Assembly: GCF_963921235.1 (NCBI RefSeq)
Contig: NC_086108.1
Location: 11,408,001-11,472,000 of the forward strand
Source of the DNA: Mobula hypostoma
Lineage: Eukaryota
Length of the DNA: 64,000 nucleotides
Direction of reading: 5' to 3'
In this document: positions 31,010 to 63,254 of the stretch, piece by piece
Numbering within the stretch: position 1 is the first letter of the stretch
How the letters are laid out: each line of letters starts with the position of its first letter
Notes under the pieces: generated by a model
Database searches by the model: none
Told to the model about the DNA's origin: nothing
The model's input: the letters and a program-made list of their open reading frames with translations, nothing else
Made by a program: the position numbers and the translations under genes

Positions 31010-33965
31010 TGGCTATGGAAGCTGGCCACCAGGACAGCCTCCTGTACGTCTGGGACAAATAGTTGGGACGCCGCTTCTTGGTCGACACTGGAGCGGAGAT
31101 CAGCGTCTTACCCCCAACGGGGTATGACACCCGCAACAGGGAGCCGGGACCCACCCTGAGGGCCGCAAACGGCAGCACGATACGGACCTACGGCACTCGC
31201 ACAGGGCAGCTACAGTTCGGCGCCGGCCATTTCACGTGGGACTTCACACTGGCCGCCGTGGCCCAACCACTCCTGGGGGCAGACTTCTTGTGAACCCACA
31301 ACCTGCTGGTCAACTTGCAAGGGAAAGACTGGTCCATGCCAAGACTTTCCAGACGTTCTCCCTGGGTGAAGCCAAGTTGCCGGCCCCACACCTGGACTCC
31401 ATCACGCTGTCTGACAACGAATTCACCAGAATCCTGGTGGACTTTCTATCGGTCCTGGCACTGCAGTTCACGGCAGCCATGCCCAGACGGAGTACAACAC
31501 CACATTCTGACACAGCGACCACCCCTCCATGCCCGCGCACAAAGGCTACCCCCGGACAAGCTCCGCCTGGCGAAGGAGGAGTTCAAGAGGATGGAGGAAT
31601 TGGGAATCATACGGAGGTCTGACAGCCTATGGGCCTCCCCCCTGCACATGGTGCCCAAAGCAGCCGGGGGCTGGAGACCATGCGGCGACTACCGCAGACT
31701 GAACGAGGCTACAACTCCAGACCGTTACCCCGTGCCGCACATACAGGACTTTGCAGCAAACCTGCACAGGGCAAGCAGCTTTTCCAAAGTAGACCTCGTC
31801 CTGGGGTACTGTCAAATCCCGGTACACCCTGAAGACATCCCCAAAACAGCACTCATCACCTCGTTCGGCCTGTTCGAATTCCTCCGAATGCCGTTTGGCC
31901 TGAAGAATGCCGCACAGACGTTCCAGCGGCTAATGGATGCGGTGGGACTCGACCTGGACTTTGCGTTCATCTATTTGGACGACATCCTCATAGCCAGCAG
32001 TAGTCGTCAGGAGCATCTGTCCCACCTCCGCCAGCTCTACTCCCGCCTGGGTGATTTCAGCCTCACGATCAACCCGGCCAAATGCCAGTTCGGACTTGAC
32101 ACCGTCGACTTCCTGGGCCATAGGATTACCAAAGACGGGGCAACACCTCTGCCCGCCAAGGTAGACGCGATCCACCACTTTGCCTGGCCCAACACAGTCA
32201 AAGGTCTGCAGGAGTTCTTCGCTATGGTGAACTTCTACTGCTGCTTCCTCCCCTCAGCAGCCCGTATCATGTGCCCTTTGTTCACCCTGATGTCGTGTCA
32301 AGGCAAGGACATTACTTGGGACGAAGAGGCCGTGGCTGCTTTCATTAAAGCCAAGGAAGCCTTGGCAGACGCCGCGATGCTGGTACACCCCAGAACGGAT
32401 GTTCCAGCTGCCCTCACAGTGGACACATCCAACACAACAGTCGATAGGCTGCTGGAGCAACTCATTGAGGGGCGCTGGCAACCCCTGGCGTTCTTCAGCA
32501 GGCACCTAAGGCCACCTGAACTCAAGTACAGTGCATTCGACCGGGAGCTGTTGGCACTATATCTGGCAATCCGGCATTTCAGGTACTTCTTAGAAGGCAG
32601 GCCATTCACCGCGTTCACGGACCACAAACCGTTGACCTTCGCGTTCATGAAGGTGTCCGATCCCTAGTCGGCCCGCCAGTAGCGACATCTGTCCTACATC
32701 TCCGAGTACACGACGGACATCCAGCATGTCTCAGGAAAGGACAACATCGTGGCAGACGCACTCTCCAGACCAGCTATCCAGGCCCTGTCGCAGGGGGTGG
32801 ACTATGCAGCACTGGCGCTGGCGCAGCAGGCAGACGACGAGATGCCCAGCTACAGGACCGCAGTCTCCGGTTTGCAGCTGCAAGACTTCCTTGTAGGCCC
32901 AGGTGAGAGGACCCTCCTGTGTGATGTGGCTACCGGCCAACCTCGCCCCCATTGTCCCAGCAGCCTGGCGGCAGCGAGTTTTCAACTCCATACATGGCTT
33001 TGCGCACCCATCTATCAGGACAACCGTCCGGATGGTCTCCAGCAAGTTCATGTGGCACGGACTTCGCAAACAGGTCAGTGAATGGGCCAAAACATGCACG
33101 CAGTGCCAAACGGCCAAGGTGCAGCGGTTCACCAAAGCCCCACCGCAGCGGTTCGAACCCACCCGCCAGAGGTTCAACCACACTCATGTGGATATCGTGG
33201 GGCCCCTGCCAGTGTCACGAGGAGCGCGGTACCTCCTAACTATGATAGACCGGTTCACCAGATGGCCAGAGGCAGTCCCGCTCACCGACACCACCTCCGA
33301 ATCCTGCGCCCGAGCACTGATTGCAGCCTGGGTAGCACGCTTCGGGGTACCAGCCCACATTACCTCTGACAGGGGCGCCCAGTTCACCTCCAGCCTGTGG
33401 TCGGCTGTGGCCAGCCTGTTGGGAACACAGCTACATCACACAACTGCCTACACCCACAGTGGAACAGACTAGTGGAGCGCTTCCACCGTCACCTGAAATC
33501 GGCTCTCATGGCCCGCCTGGAGGGGCCTAACTGGGTGGACAAGCTTCCCTGGGTCCTGCTCGGAATCCGTACGGCGCCCAAAAAGGATCTGCACACCTCG
33601 TTGGCTGAGCTGGTGTACGGCGCACCCCTGGTCATCCCAGGAGAGTTCATACCAGACTCAAGGGGGCAGGAGGAAGAACCCACAGCAGTCCTGGACAGAC
33701 TACGCGAAAGGCTCGGCAACCTGGCCCCTGTACCGACTTCACAGCACGGACAGATCCCGACCTGCGTACCCAAAGACCAGCAGAACTGTAAGTTTGTATT
33801 TGTACGAAGGGGCACACACTGGGCACCCCTACAGCGGCCGTATGAGGGGCCGTTCAAGGTGATCAGCAACAACGGGTCCATGTTCGTGCTGGACACTGGG
33901 GGGAGAGAGGAGGTTTTCACGGTGGACCGACTCAAACCGGCCCATGTGGACTTGGCGCAGCCGGT
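31010..33965 (+). pseudogene. pol: Gypsy pol (protease-RT-RNase H-integrase) with stops and frameshifts
   Basis: FLVDTGAE; WRPCGDYRRLN, MPFGLKNA, YLDD; YSAFDRELLA, TDHKPL; H..AH/CTQC, HVDIVGPLP, SDRGAQF, GPF motif. Confidence 0.95.
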
Positions 33966-34067
33966 TCGAGGTTCAGGCATCGAGGCGCAGAGGCAGACCA
34001 CCCAAACAGAGACTGATCCAGACTGTGGACATTGGGGGATGTATCGCCGGTTCTGGAAGGGGTGTTA

Positions 34068-34357
34068 TGTGGCAACCCACTTTCTACGCAGGCGAACCGG
34101 CTCAGAAAATGGCGCACACATCGGCAGAGAGGCCAGCCCCAAAATGGCGCTAGGCCTTCTTCCTCACCAGCAAGGGGAGAAAGCCCGTGCGTGGAAAGAG
34201 ACTTTTGTAATGCACCTCTGTCGTCATTTCCACCCAGAGAGGGCGGGAAGGGAACTGAGTAAAAGCCAGTGCTATGAAGTTTGAATAAACTAGTCTCGAG
34301 TACAACTTACAGACTGCGAGTCGCTATTTCTAGCTCTGTGTGTAGTACATCACTACA
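34068..34357 (+). repeat. 3' LTR (290 bp)
   Basis: TGTGG...CTACA followed by the TSD GAAG. Confidence 0.93.
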
Positions 34358-35415: not shown

Positions 35416-38400
35416 TTATACTATGTACTTTATTGTCGCCAAGCAATTGGTACTAGAACGTACAATCATCACAGCGATATTTGATTCTGCGCTTCACACT
35501 CCCTGGATTACAAATATTAAATATTAAAAATATTAAAAATAGTAAAAATTAGTAAATATTAAGAATTTAAATTATAAATCATAAATAGAAAATAGAAAAA
35601 TGGAAAGTAAGGTAGTGCAAAAAAACCGAGAGGCAGGTCCGGATATTTGGAGGGTACGGCCCAGATCTGGGTCAGGATCCGTTCAGCAGTCCTATCACAG
35701 TTGGAAAGAAGCTGTTCCCAAATCTGGTCGTACGAGTCTTCAAGCTCCTGAGCCTTCTCCCAGAGGGAAGAGGGATGGAAAGTGTGTTGGCTGGGTGGGT
35801 CATGTCCTTGATTATCCTGGCAGCACTGTTCCGACAGCGTGCGGTGTAAAGTGAGTCCACGGATGGAAGATTGGTTTGTGTGATGTGCTGCGCCATGTTC
35901 ACGATCTTCTGCAGCTTCTTTCAGTCTTGGACAGGACAACTCCATACCAGGTTGTGATGCACCCTAGAAGAATGCTTTCTATGGTGCATCTATAAAAATT
36001 AGTGAGGGTTTTAGGGGACAGGCCAAATTTCTTTAGTTTACTCAGGAAGTAAAGGCACTGGTGGGCCTTCTTGGCAGTGAGCTCTGCTTGGTTGGACCAA
36101 GTCAGGTCATTTGTGATATTGACCCCGAGGAACTTAAAGCTTTTGACCTGTTCCACTTGAGCACCACCGATGTAAATTGGGTCGTGCAGTCCGCTACTCC
36201 TTCTGAAGTCAACAACCAATTCCTTCATCTTGCTGACATTGAGGGATAGGTTATTGTCTTGGCACCATGCCATCAGGTTCTTAATTTCCTCTCTGTACTC
36301 AAGCTCATCATTACCTGAGATACGGCCTACAATTGTTGTGTCATCAGCAAACCTACATTGAGTTTGATGGAAACTTGGCTACACAATCATGGGTGTACAG
36401 TGAGTACAGCAGGGGCCTGAGTACACAGCCTTGTGGGGCACCAGTGATCAGAGTGATTGTAGAGGAGAGCTTGTCCCCTATTTTTACAGCCTGGGTCCTG
36501 TCTGTGAGGAAGTTGAAGATCCAGCTGCAGATCTGAGTGCTAAGGCCCAGGTTCCGGAGCTTAGGAATCAGTTTATTTGGAATGATGGTATGAAAGGCAG
36601 AGCTGTAGTCAATGAAAAGGAGCCCTACGTATTCGTCTTTATTCTCCAGGTGTTCTGAGGAGGAATGTAGGGCCAGAGAGATGGCATCTGCCATTGACCT
36701 GTTGCTCCGGTAGGCGAATTGCAAAGCATCGAGGTTGACCAGTAGGCTGTGGTTGATGTGTGCCATAACCAATCTCTCGAAGCACTTCATAGCAATTGAT
36801 GACAGAGCCACAGGTCTATAGTCATTCAGGCATGCCACCTTGCTCTTCTTCGGCACTGGGATTATCATTGCCTTCTTAAAACATGAGGGGATCTTAGACT
36901 GAAGCAAGGAGCAGCTGAAGATGTCAGCAAACACTCCAGCTAGCTCGCTTGCACAGGCCCGGAGAACCCATCCTGGGACGCCATCTGGGCCCATCGCCTT
37001 CCTTGGATTTATCTTCAGGAAGGCCCTTCTAACGTCCTCCTCGGTGATGATGAATCTCAATGCCACCAGGTCCGGTTCATCTGAAGGGAGCTGGACGCTC
37101 CTCTTCTGTTCGAATCTTGCGCAGAATACATTAAGTTCATCAGGAAGAGAAGTGCCACAGTTATTGATATTCCCAGCCTTTTCTTTGCACACAGTAATCT
37201 CATTTAGTCCCTGCCATAGTCTACTGGCATCCCTTTGGTTAGCTTGGGTTTCCAACTTGGCTCGATATTGCCTCTTGGCACCCTTAATGGCTTTCCGGAG
37301 TTCACACCTGGATTCCGTGTAGCGACTGGCATCCCTGGACCCAAAAGCCGCAGCTCTAGCCTTTAAAAGGGACTTGACCTCATAATTCATCCAAGGTTTC
37401 CGGTTAGGGAATACCCGGATCGTCCTGCGAGACACACAGTCCTCCGTGCATTTCCAAAAAAGTCCGTGACAGCTGAGGCATACTCATCGAGGTTAGCTGC
37501 CGAGTCCTTGAATACTAACCAGTCCACCGATTCAAAGCAGTCACGGAGGACCTCATCCGTTTCCTCCGTCCAACGCGACATTACTTTTGACACCGTGACC
37601 TTCCGCTTCAGTTTCTGTTTGTAAGCCAGGTTGAGGAGTATGGCCTGATTGTCCGATTTTCCGAAGTGAAGTCGTGGGACAGAATGGTAGGCATCCTTGA
37701 CTGCTGTGTTGCTGTGGTCAAGTATATTCGGGCCTCTAGTGGGGCAGGAGACATGTTGGTATAACTTCGGCAGGGCCTTTCTGAAGTTGGCCTGGTTAAA
37801 GTCCCCGGCTATAATGATCAAAGCCTCCGGATACCTGGTCTCAAGTTCACTGATGTTGGCATACAGTATGTTCAGAGCACACTCCACGACTGCCTGGGGG
37901 GGAATGTAGACCGCTGTCAGTATGACCGAGGTGAATTCCCGTGGCAGATAGTAGGGACGGCACTTCACTGACGTGTTCCAGGTCCGGGCTGCAGGAGCTT
38001 GTCAGTGCCACTGTGTCCGAGCATCACCCAGTGTTGATCAGTAGGCAGACACCACCTCCCCTCGTCTTGCCCAGAGATACCGTGTGGTCCATCCTATGGA
38101 TTGAAAATCCCTCCAGTTGGATGGCACAGTCGGGGGTGGCAGAGGAGAGCCAGGTCTCGGTGAAACAGAATACACAGCAGTTCTGCATCTCCCTGCAGTA
38201 GGTGAGTCTCCCTTTAAGAATATCCACCTTGTTCTCTATGGCTTGCACATTAGCTAGTAGGATGGTGGGCATAGGGACCCTGAAGCCCCTCAGCTTCAAT
38301 CTGACCAGCAGCCCAGCTCTTTTCCCACGCTTCCTCGGTAAGTAGTGCATCTTTCCAGGTTTCCATCGATGCAGTGTGTTGTCAGCTCTTTGAGGTAGGT

Positions 38401-52770: not shown

Positions 52771-53109
52771 ACACTCTTTATCTACATTTGCTTGCTTCAG
52801 GGACCTACAGCCTTGTACATCAGGGTCCCTCTGTTCCCCAATACTTTCACAAGGCCTTACCATTCATTGTCCTGATGAAGGATCTTGGCCCGAAAGCCTA
52901 ACTGTTTATTCCTCTCCATAGATGCTGCCTGACTGCCTGACTGCTGAGTTCCTCCAGCATGTTGTGTGTGTTGCTCTGGATTTGCAGCATCTGCATTCTT
53001 GGGGGAAAAATGTCAGATGGAATTTAATGCAGACAAGTTCAAGGGATTGCACTTTCATAGAACGAACCAGCTAAAAATTAAATGTAAAAACTCCCAAAAA
53101 TGAATCCCT

Positions 53110-55353: not shown

Positions 55354-56712
55354 ATAGAACATAGAATAGTACAGAACAGTACAGGCCCTTCGGCCCACAA
55401 TGTTGTGCTGACCCTCAAACCCTGCCTCTCATATAAGCTCCCACCTTAGATTCCTCCATATACCTGTCTAGTAGTCTCTTAAACTTCACTAGTGTATCTG
55501 CCTCCACCACTGACTCAGGCAGTGCATTCCACGCACCAACCACTCTCTGAGTAAAAAACCTTCCTTTAATATCCCCCTTGAACTTCCCACCCCCTTACCT
55601 TAAAGCCATGTCCTCTTGTATTGAGCAGTGGTGCCCTGGGGAAGAGGCGCTGGCTATCCACTTTATCTATTCCTCTTATTATCTTGTACACCTCTATCAT
55701 GTCTCCTCTCATCCTCCTTCTCTCCAAAGAGTAAAGCCCTAGCTCCTTTAATCTCTGATCATAATGCATACTTTCTAAACCAGGCAGCATCCTGGTATAT
55801 CTTCTGTGTACCCTTTCCAATGCTTCCACATCCTTCCTATAGTGAGGTGACCAGAACTGGACACAGTACTCCAAGTGTGGCCTAACCAGAGTTTTATAGA
55901 GCTGCATCATTACATCGCGACTCTTAAACTCTATCCCTCGACTTATGAAAGCTAACATCCCATAAGCTTTCTTAACTACCCTATCCACCTGTGAGGCAAC
56001 TTTCAGGAATCTGTGGACATGTACCCCGAGATCCCTCTGCTCCTCCACACTACCAAGTATCCTGCCATTTACTTTGTACTCTGCCTTGGAGTTTGTCCTT
56101 CCAAAGTATACCACCTCACACTTCTCCGGGTTGAACTCCATCTGCCACTTCTCAACCCACTTCTGCATCCTATCAATGTCTCTCTGCAATCTTTGACAAT
56201 CCTCTACACTATCCACAACACCACCAACCTTTGTGTCGTCTGCAAACTTGCCAACCCACCCTTCTACCCCCACATCCAGGTCGTTAATAAAAATCACAAA
56301 AAGTAGAGGTCCCAGAACCAATCCTTGTGGGACACCACTAGTCACAATCCTCCAATCTGAATGTACTCCCTCCACCACCACCCTCTGCCTTCTGCAGGCA
56401 AGCCAATTCTGAATCCATCTGGCCAAACTTCCCTGGATCCCATGCCTCCTAACTTTCTGAATAAGCCTACCGAGTGGAACCTTGTCAAATGCCTTACTAA
56501 AATCCATATAGATCACATCCGCTGCACTACCCTCATCTATATGCCTGGTCACCTCCTCAGAGAACTCTATCAGGCTTGTTAGACACGATCTTCCCTTCAC
56601 AAAGCCATGCTGACAGTCCCTGATCAGACCATGATTCTCTAAATGCCTATAGATCCTATCTCTAAGAATCTTTTCCAACAGCTTTCCCACCACAGATGTA
56701 AGGCTCACTGGT
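55354..56712 (-). mobile_element. Young 5'-truncated CR1 LINE with an uninterrupted RT/C-terminal frame (~380 aa), nested in a V-SINE
   Basis: QHGFVKGRSCLTSL, DFSKAFDKV, GVPQG, FADDTK, RPHLEYCVQFW; V-SINE halves at 55222-55353 and 56713-56850. Confidence 0.95.
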
Positions 56713-57282
56713 CCCACCACAGTCCAAAGACGTATTGGTTATTGTAAAATGTTTCACGAGCAGATAGGGTTAAGTAAGTGGGTTGCTGGGTGGCAAGGCT
56801 CATAGGGCTCAGAGGGCCTGGTCTGTGTGCTATCTCAATAAAAAAAAATCCAAAAGAACCCATTAAAAAAAGACCATCAAACACCCAATGTGCAGAGATA
56901 AAACAAAACTAATCATGCAAACAATAAATGCAAGCAAACAGTGTTCTGGAAACTGAAGTCCACACAGACCCTCAATTCAGCACAGAACAGAGCAGTGATC
57001 TGAACCGACCTGCCCTTCACACCTTGACCTTTTCAATCTGACCCGGTCCTCGTGGAGGAAAGAAAAATGTTTCAAGATATAACAGAAATAAAACCTGTGA
57101 GATTTTTCAATTCAGTAAAGGAGGGTCAAGAAATCAATACAGAAAGAAATATGTGAGAATAGACAAACGAGATTCTGCAGATGCTCGAAATCTTGAGCAA
57201 GACACACAAAATGCTGGAGGAACTCAGCAGGCCAGAAAGCACCTATGGAAGGAAGTAAATAGCCAATGTTTCAGCCCAAAAT

Positions 57283-57850: not shown

Positions 57851-58121
57851 GCCCAAAATATTGACAGTTTATTCTCGTCCATAGATGTTGACTGACCTGT
57901 TGAGTTCTTCCAGCATTTTGTGTGTTTTGTAAAACATGAGCATGTCACGTGGGGCAGGTTGACTTACTTGCTGGTCAAAAACTGTTGTCACCATGTCAGT
58001 CTTTGATTGGCCCTTTTAAAGGATGCGGCTGCTCTTTTCCATTGGTTGGTCTGCGTGTCATGGCATTAGTATACGGTACTGGGTGCGTCAGAGGTATAGG
58101 AATAGCATGTGCAAGAGATTT

Positions 58122-58403
58122 TAAAACGTAACCACGAGGAATTCTGCAGATGCTGGAAATTCAAGCAACACACATCAAAGTTGCTGGTGAACGCAGCAGG
58201 CCAGGCAACATCTCTAGGAAGAGGTACAGTTGACGTTTTGGGCCGAGACCCTTCGTCAGGACCCAGTCGACTTTTCGGGCCGAGACCCTCCGTCAGGAAC
58301 GAAGGGTCCTGACGAAGGGTCTCGGCCCGAAAAATCGACTGTACCTCTTCCTAGAGATGCTGCCTGGCCTGCTGCATTCACCAGCAACTTTGATGTGTGT
58401 TGC
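58122..58403. mobile_element. Palindromic Penelope-derived non-autonomous element with three hammerhead-like motifs
   Basis: ~100-bp inverted arms at 58164-58263 and 58305-58404; TGTGCAAGAGATTT duplicated at 58108 and 58404. Confidence 0.8.
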
Positions 58404-58710
58404 TGTGCAAGAGATTTGTTCCCTTTCCCTTGTCTCCAGGGGCCTGGTTCGGCTGAAGTCACAACCAATGGTAAAGGATCATTGGGAAAGAGTGTTGCAG
58501 ACATAGGGTTTGTTTAGTGAAGTATTTGTTTGTCAAGCTATTTGTTTTTAGCTGGACATCTGGTTTAGTGTTTCACTGCGCATCAGGTGTTGGTATTTCT
58601 TTTTTTTTAATTGGTTTCTTTCGGGTTTCTTGCTTTATGGCTGCCTGTAAGCAGAATTTATACATTCTTTGATAATAAATGTACTTTGAATCTTTGAGAC
58701 TTAGAAATTA

Positions 58711-59480: not shown

Positions 59481-59849
59481 TGTCTTCTAAAGAGGAATAA
59501 GCAAATAGCTGAGGAATTAGGAAAATATTTGGTTTCAGAAGAAGACATGAGAAGATCCCAGAAATAGAAGAAGATTGAATCAGCTAGTTGTTGGGATTAT
59601 GCGCCTATCCCGTGAGGGGAACCCAAATGGGCTGGATTTTTGTTGTCATGGTGACAGAAGAGTTAAAGATTATGTCATCAAAAATATACAAAATTGTTAG
59701 AGGGGGAGATACCGTGAAAATGTTCTCCCTGGCCAAGGAGTCTAGACCTGGGGGTGTTATCTCAACTTAAAGGCTAAAGTATTTAAATGTGAAATGAGGA
59801 GTCATTTCCTCACATGGAGGTGGTGAATCTTTGGTAGATGTGAAGACAA

Positions 59850-60800
59850 GTAACACCCGCAAAATGCTGAAGGAACTCAGCAGGATAGGCAGCATCTGTG
59901 GAAAAAAAGTACAGTTGACATTTCGGGCTGAGACCTCTCAGCAGGACTGGAGAGAAAAAGCTGAGGAGTCGATTTAAAAGATTGGGGGAGGGGAGAGAGA
60001 AATGCAAGGTGATGGGTGAAACCAAGAGGGGGAGGGAGTAAAGAGCTGGGAAGTTGATTGGTGAAAGAGATACAGGGCTGGAGAAAGGGGAGTCTAATAG
60101 GAGAGAACAGAAGGCCACAGAAAAAAGAAAAGGAGGAAGGAGGGAGGCAAGGAGATAACCTAGAGAACGTGAAAAGGGATGGGGGGGGGGTGCGGAGAAG
60201 GCATTACCAGAAGTTTGAGAAATCAATGTTCATGCCATCTACAGAACATAAGACATTCATCCTCCAACCTGAGTGTGGCCTCATCACAACAGTAGAGGAG
60301 GCCATGGATGGACATATCGAAATGGGAATGAGAAGTGGAATTAAAATGGGTGGCCACTGGGAGAAGCCACTTTTTCTGGCGGATGGAGGGTAGGTGCTTG
60401 GCAAAGTGGTCTCCAAATCTACATTGTGTTTCACCGATATTCAGGAGGCCACACCGGGAGCACCGGACACAGTATATGACCCCTACAGGTGAAGTGTCGC
60501 CTTACCCAGAACGAATGTTTGGGGCCCTGAGTAGTAGGGAGGGAGGAGGTGTAGGGGCAGGTGTGGCACTTGTTCCGCTTATAAGGATTAGTGCCAGGAG
60601 GGAGACCAGTGGGGAGGGACGAATGGACAAGGAAGTCACATAGGGAGAGATCCCTGCGGAAAGCAGAAAGTGACTCCCTTACAGAAGGTTGACCAATCGA
60701 CTTCCCAGCTCTTTACTTTATCCCTCCTCCTCCTGTCTTTGCCTACCACCTTTTGGGTGTGTTGCTTGGATTTCCAGTAGCTGCAGATTTTCTCTTGTTT
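59850..60800 (-). mobile_element. Penelope-like element remnant (GIY-YIG endonuclease, Neptune-like) with terminal repeats
   Basis: Minus-strand frame from 60483 reads GVIYCVRCSRCGLLNIGETQCRFGDHFAKHL..PVATHFNSTSH; upstream KCHTCPY; a partial inverted terminal repeat at 60690-60800. Confidence 0.88.
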
Positions 60801-63083: not shown

Positions 63084-63254
63084 ACAACAGGAATTCTGCA
63101 GATGCTGGAAATTCAAGCAACATACATCAAAGTTGCTGGTGAACGCAGCAGGCCAAGCAGCATCTATAGGAAGAGGCGCAGTCGACGTTTCAGGCTGAGA
63201 CCCTTCATCAGGACTAACTGAAGGACTCACCAGCAACTTTGATGTATGTTGCTT
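63084..63254 (-). mobile_element. Short Penelope-derived element with a partial inverted repeat
   Basis: CTTCCAATATTCAA duplicated at 63070 and 63252; same subfamily as 58122-58403. Confidence 0.8.
63179..63216 (-). ncRNA. Putative minimal type I hammerhead ribozyme
   Basis: Minus strand UAGUC-CUGAUGA-AGGGUCUCAGCCU-GAAA-CG-UC-GACUG: intact core, stem I AGUC/GACU, stem II AGG/CCU. Confidence 0.7.

Follow-up and report, generated by a model that had tools for sequence, protein, structure and literature searches.

A head-to-head pseudo-LTR insertion of a Penelope-like element, with a duplicated hammerhead core, in Mobula hypostoma

We analyzed an insertion in a 64,000-nucleotide stretch of Mobula hypostoma DNA (contig NC_086108.1 of assembly GCF_963921235.1), which we call the window. 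The insertion is flanked by an exact 14-bp direct repeat (Table 1) and contains two inverted arms of 101 nt, at 58164-58264 and 58304-58404, that are 94% complementary. The left arm continues into a 42-nt tail that is unpaired. A first-pass annotation had described a fold-back with near-perfect arms of about 100 bp, a target-site duplication of 13-14 bp, and three hammerhead motifs at the apex (two in tandem on the minus strand, 58227-58262 and 58264-58299, and one on the plus strand, 58306-58341), and all of these are present. The insert is predicted to fold into a hairpin of -212/-217 kcal/mol (z ~ -24), and none of 200 shuffled sequences was equally stable.

The sense strand of the element is the minus strand of the window. 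We number the family from the G that lies three bases ahead of the CUGA core (position 0; 58262 in the window, minus strand). This puts C3 of the hammerhead at +3, the predicted scissile bond at +30/+31, and stem I's 3' strand at +31 to +35. Along the sense strand, the order of the insert is: the target duplication, an inverted copy of +97 to 0, a 7-nt filler, a duplicate of +1 to +35, a single G, the main copy from 0 to +140, and the target duplication again. A genome-wide search for the apex junction found just this one occurrence.

Table 1. Parts of the insertion in window coordinates, and a class of core duplications at other loci
Feature	Position	Strand	Basis
Target-site duplication, left copy, 14 bp	58108..58121	+	100% repeat match
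Main copy (a solo pseudo-LTR from a Penelope-like element), spanning family positions 0 to ~+140	58122..58262	-	same sequence ends elements with RT and GIY-YIG
Tail of the Penelope-like element, ~42 nt, on one arm only	58122..58163	-	matches the 30-40-bp tail in the accessible text of PMC8557442 and PMC11167929
The main copy's minimal hammerhead motif, with G12A and G1.1A	58227..58262	-	compared with family majority
One extra G between the duplicate and the main copy	58263..58263	-	sequence
Head-to-tail duplicate of the hammerhead core, +1..+35, with A9G and a broken stem III palindrome	58264..58298	-	compared with family majority
Filler at the junction, a short second copy of +6..+12 joined through shared letters	58299..58305	+	sequence
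Inverted 5' pseudo-LTR copy, 0..+97, without the tail; hammerhead motif at 58306-58341	58306..58403	+	arm alignment
Target-site duplication, right copy, 14 bp	58404..58417	+	repeat match
Core duplications that end at +29 to +31, the predicted scissile bond	L245, L247-L257, L259-L264		

The insertion is a solo pseudo-LTR (pLTR) of a very abundant Penelope-like retrotransposon, with a shorter inverted 5' copy attached. When we searched the 3.48-Gb genome for exact matches to a 63-nt piece of the repeat, there were 12,121 (a control had 0). Long copies extend upstream into frames that match RVT_1 (E = 3.7e-6) and GIY-YIG (E = 1.1e-4), as shown on L065, which terminates in this repeat, so we identify the repeat as the pLTR of a Penelope-like element (PLE). 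On L065, the GIY-YIG match is above the Pfam cut-off, while the RVT_1 match, in a truncated frame, is below it (27.2 vs. 29.6). Besides its place at the 3' end, the pLTR also precedes the ORF, as the repeat enters the ORF start in L244, L029, and L060. (In L244:977-1400, on the reverse strand, an open frame extends across the entire repeat and into the ORF; a variable T run shifts the frame in L029 and L060.) The family has the features of EN+ PLEs: RT followed by GIY-YIG, a pLTR at both ends, an inverted 5' copy, a tail at one end, and a target duplication. In the parent ORF, a C-x4-C-x2-C motif precedes the GIY-YIG nuclease, which hints at the Neptune clade; a Zn-finger-like motif between RT and EN, along with placement in an RT tree, is a criterion for this clade (accessible text of PMC8557442).

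Elsewhere, the window has another young copy from this family (91%), at 63089-63254, with a short inverted piece, and about eight older relatives (such as 57167-57271, 59849-59947, and 52869-52995). The window also contains a GC-rich region with an RT and RNase H frame (31294-34284), which is likely a fragment of an LTR retroelement; further pieces of RT lie at 36353-37483 and 55566-56738.

The breakpoints of the family suggest that position ~0 is probably the capped transcription start of the element's RNA. The 5' ends of copies spread from about -12 to +13, and in 21 of 98 copies they lie at -1 to +3. (Our breakpoint walker halts at subfamily variants, which gives false piles at -34, -15, and +28 to +40, so we only used -12 to +13.) The element in L244, which has an inverted arm, begins at -5 and continues through the repeat into the ORF start. 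The sequence around position 0 fits the consensus of an initiator, and internal promoters are described in PLEs in the accessible text of PMC2377424. We rejected two other explanations for this end. If short copies began at the ribozyme's cut site, their 5' ends would pile up at +31 instead of at -1 to +3; and position 0 is not an alternative NUH cut, as by inspection the stems do not pair. Just upstream of stem I, at about -25 to +1, there is a branch-point-like motif, a pyrimidine tract, and two AG sites, which resemble a splice acceptor. In Drosophila Penelope, an intron ends at helix I. The upstream tract may be a splice acceptor rather than a transcription start signal.

The identification of the motifs as hammerheads holds: they fit the minimal hammerhead described by Cervera and de la Pena (PMC4209133, accessible text). 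A scan of the window with Rfam at E <= 1 gave no match, so the call rests on the motif and on that published description. The family-majority hammerhead has the conserved core, stems I and II, and a palindromic stem III, and its helices can pair in most of the tandem loci that we examined. At our locus, both changes in the left motif are at CpG sites. Relative to the family majority, the middle motif has C15.2A and T at its first position as well as A9G, and the plus-strand motif has C15.2A and G16.2A. None of the three copies combines an intact core with the stem III palindrome: the left has G12A, the middle has A9G and a broken palindrome, and the plus-strand motif has an intact core without the palindrome, and is paired in the predicted fold with probability ~1. 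G12 and A9 are essential for hammerhead activity. We predict that none of the three motifs cleaves.

The tandem pair has the geometry of a double hammerhead, as the first-pass annotation had argued, and intact tandem pairs are present at other loci. At our locus, the two hybrid ribozymes would use the middle core (with A9G) and the left core (with G12A), with one mismatch in stem III and two in outer stem I. Forcing the double hammerhead costs 77 kcal/mol over the hairpin in the whole transcript and 28 kcal/mol in the tandem alone. At 12 other loci, the corresponding cost in the tandem alone is 15-21 kcal/mol; tertiary terms are absent from the energy model, so these values are meaningful only when loci are compared. 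Of 12 tandem loci examined for core lesions, 11 have none. The same annotation had expected that transcripts would carry a ribozyme or else fold into a long dsRNA hairpin. The hairpin is supported by the predicted fold; a working ribozyme is not, given the core lesions and the cost of the active fold. We predict that the insert is inert, and that, if transcribed, it would form the ~100-bp hairpin rather than cleave.

To see how common this layout is, we used the first 72 places among the listed matches to the 63-nt piece, all from one contig, as an unselected sample; after one segmental duplicate was dropped, 71 copies remained. An inverted 5' arm was present in 31 of these 71 copies. The outer end of the arm was at +95 to +104 in 21 of the 31, while main copies end at about +125 to +142. 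Target duplications of the family are mostly 12-16 bp. In 35 of 51 pairs of arms, both arms have the same subfamily haplotype (the mean was 9.3 and the maximum 18 when pairs were shuffled; the 51 pairs include a few duplicates and loci that were selected by other searches). Rare non-CpG variants were common to both arms in just 7 of 120 cases. Shared haplotypes with rarely shared rare variants imply that both arms came from one source and then decayed independently.

At least five inverted arms (L034, L066, L076, L077, and L099) extend beyond the 5' limit of their main copy by more than 100 nt. They cannot be fold-back copies of it, and this favors priming at both ends of the break. The accessible text of PMC3846280 proposes otherwise for rotifer PLEs, and reads such palindromes as the result of self-priming on an antisense template. 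Snap-back of a single cDNA or antisense RNA would account for the subfamily alleles that are common to both arms and for short palindromes at the junctions, but it does not fit the inverted arms that exceed the main copy in length, the outer ends that cluster at +95 to +104 instead of mirroring the main copy's 3' end, or loci where the long arm can be either one (L101, L103, and L111). We consider snap-back to be very unlikely.

The first-pass annotation had also raised the idea of a bidirectional self-cleaving mobile unit with fixed ends. Such a unit would be akin to a retrozyme and would spread as a palindrome plus tandem hammerhead. The structure does recur: at least 10 of 26 distinct loci that we examined have an inverted arm, a core duplicate, and a main copy, and tandem pairs elsewhere can form all of the double-hammerhead helices. 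The ends are not fixed, however. The apex of our locus is unique, and loci with the same layout differ in their junction letters, arm lengths, ends, target duplications, flanks, and subfamily alleles. No head-to-tail core duplicate like that at our locus was present in the 71 unselected copies. Also, both hybrid ribozymes at our locus have a core lesion, and every copy of the motif is damaged and buried in the hairpin. One odd apex junction is common to L116 and L117 (about 690 kb apart on contig C5), which have different flanks and subfamily alleles, but it has only these two copies in the genome. With one match for the apex of our locus and two for that of L116 and L117, we rejected a clonal palindromic subfamily. 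The structure recurs by convergence and is not amplified as a unit, and we see hardly any chance that our locus belongs to such a mobile unit.

We are confident that the locus is instead a one-off head-to-head pLTR insertion. Reverse transcription was likely primed by the element's protein at the two ends of a staggered break, and one of the cDNAs likely jumped back from the RNA's 5' end and re-copied the hammerhead core. This supports the other suggestion of the earlier annotation, an abortive PLE template-switch product. From what we observed (the parts, the parent element, the layout's frequency and breakpoints, and the lesions), we infer these copying steps. Staggered nicks 14 bp apart would give the target duplication. 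Copying would start near +140 at one end and near +97 at the other, and these sites would define the PLE tail. Both cDNAs would run off the RNA's 5' end at ~0, which is probably the capped transcription start. The first cDNA would then jump to +35 and copy the core again, while the second would slip back by 7 nt. The two cDNA ends would be joined, and point changes would damage the cores afterwards. This does not explain why C15.2A is common to the core duplicate and the right arm and absent from the left arm; either two templates or conversion could be responsible.

To see where such core duplications land, we searched the genome for junctions; all of these searches were anchored by design on position 0, the likely 5' end of the RNA. 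A search for the end of stem I joined to position 0 found 107 junctions. In a hand tally of the 100 that were listed, 77 landed at +36/+37 (1-2 nt past stem I), 7 at +35 (including our locus), 4 ambiguously at +35/+36, and 6 at +38 or beyond; the other 6 were not duplications. The +35 landing of our locus is thus in a minority class (7-11 of the 100 junctions listed). A second search found 32 junctions, with 24 at +29 to +31, 1 at +32, 5 at +33, and 2 at +34. We examined 20 of the 24 loci at +29 to +31, and 18 were true core duplications, while 2 were due to chance. A third search found 20 junctions: 1-4 per position over +23 to +28, 2 at +29, 2 that used a 3-letter homology, and 4 that were unclear. 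Because the searches used different anchors and gap ranges, their combined profile is approximate. Even so, the peaks at +29 to +31 and at +36/+37 both rise well above ~2-3 junctions per position. At a control position (+43), with a differently built pattern, the core start was rejoined in 1 of 54 cases; a search for landings at +45 to +56 was swamped by matches to the natural upstream pyrimidine tract. We also considered +37 as a third genomic start site for RT and rejected it: among the first 100 of 363 matches, about 5 pass into flanking DNA at +37, versus about 30 of 54 at the control position +43 (by eye). Stem-I junctions are unevenly spread, with 1 of 107 on the 256-Mb contig C1 and 13 listed on C5.

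Many of the junctions have an extra base. G was the commonest in our hand tally, and at +37 junctions with one extra base it was G in 17 of 21 loci (the figure becomes 17 of 29 when 8 ambiguous A cases are included as non-G). In non-LTR elements, RT can copy the RNA cap. An excess of G would be expected if the cap is copied, and the extra G at 58263 is possibly a copied cap.

Overall there are ~150 core-duplication junctions, as compared to 22,051 matches of the core with upstream sequence that departs at -2. The latter include older families. By this comparison, duplication occurs in under 1% of cases. Some +36/+37 tandems (such as L104, L109, L124, L110, and L123) have both cores intact and can pair all of the helices of a cis double hammerhead. 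Some loci (L118-L121 on C5 and L129-L130 on C18) have arrays of 3-6 cores with a period of 39-53 nt and the same junction within each array, in a single insertion. Repeated jumps, a small circular template, or later DNA slippage are possible origins for the arrays. Further arrays of hammerhead cores are on C22, C45, and C1.

DNA slippage or cruciform repair at the palindrome's apex, after insertion, is a very unlikely source of the duplicate: long palindromes are unstable, and the duplicate and the right arm do have one variant in common, but loci that lack an inverted arm have the duplication too (L104, L109, L124, L127, L245, L247, L248, L252, and L255), breakpoints lack shared letters and often have one extra base, and just 2 junctions used the available 3-letter homology.

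The junction pattern likely records RT jumping onto folded or self-cleaved RNA. In the simplest reading, RT would jump end to end, from the RNA's 5' end to the 3' ends of RNAs: either the 5' cleavage product, which ends at +30, or RNAs that end, or a strand that turns, at the base of stem I. More specifically, we tentatively propose, with slightly more doubt than belief, that the junctions are a fossil record of RT resetting from the capped 5' end of the RNA to two fixed sites that are set by the hammerhead, one at +36/37, where stem I has its base, and one at +29/30, at the scissile bond. If so, the peak at +29/30 would be direct evidence that the minimal hammerhead of a vertebrate PLE cleaves itself in the germline. 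The peak at +36/37 and the arrays of 3-6 cores would reflect a telomerase-like stutter that adds repeats and builds intact cis double hammerheads, and this would be a route by which retrozymes are born from PLEs. The peaks would be a readout, from sequence alone, of RNA folding and cleavage during retrotransposition; they name exact positions for work with purified PLE protein and can be sought in any PLE-rich genome. There are thousands of head-to-head PLE end fragments, and our locus, as just one of them, carries little weight by itself.

The locus adds one more case of a structure that was already described. In the accessible text of PMC3846280 and PMC8557442, the head-to-head pLTRs of EN+ PLEs likewise have a shorter inverted 5' copy, a 30-40-nt tail on one arm, a target duplication, a templated junction, and solo pLTRs. 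The Mobula family differs in its target duplications (12-16 bp, versus 8-10 bp in the rotifer examples of PMC3846280), and our locus has the extra duplicate of the hammerhead core at its apex. Published minimal hammerheads share the extra base after A9, the G10.1-C11.1 pair, the stem I of 4-5 bp, and the 4-nt palindrome in place of stem III, and close pairs on opposite strands were already noted; in contrast, all three copies at our locus are damaged and the tandem spacing is only 37 nt. The minimal hammerheads of PLEs have low activity in vitro, according to the accessible text of PMC4209133.

For Poseidon from Anolis (PAc), studied in vitro (Frangieh 2024, PMC11167929), the accessible text also reports two internal start sites that bracket the tail and extension of both target strands, with a hammerhead that is dispensable for insertion. 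That text reports no reads that end at the cleavage site, whereas the Mobula junctions cluster there, and it does not describe the jump from the RNA's 5' end that we propose. More broadly, we found no description of the junction peaks in the accessible portions of the PLE and hammerhead literature, although the axolotl tandem figure, the supplements of the retrozyme papers, or Lunse et al. 2017 may show such duplicates. Axolotl PLEs with minimal hammerheads in tandem are mentioned in the accessible text of PMC7229834.

Non-LTR retrozymes (PMC7229834; bioRxiv 10.64898/2026.07.22.740005; accessible text of both) are also head-to-tail units of type I hammerheads and derived from PLEs, and the preprint derives them from pLTRs. 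Those units are 51-972 bp, with intact motifs, and form families of their own. Our locus does not fit the preprint's definition of a non-LTR retrozyme, given its unique apex and the lesions in its motifs: it is a damaged 35-nt duplicate inside a single PLE insertion, with no sign of having spread as a unit.
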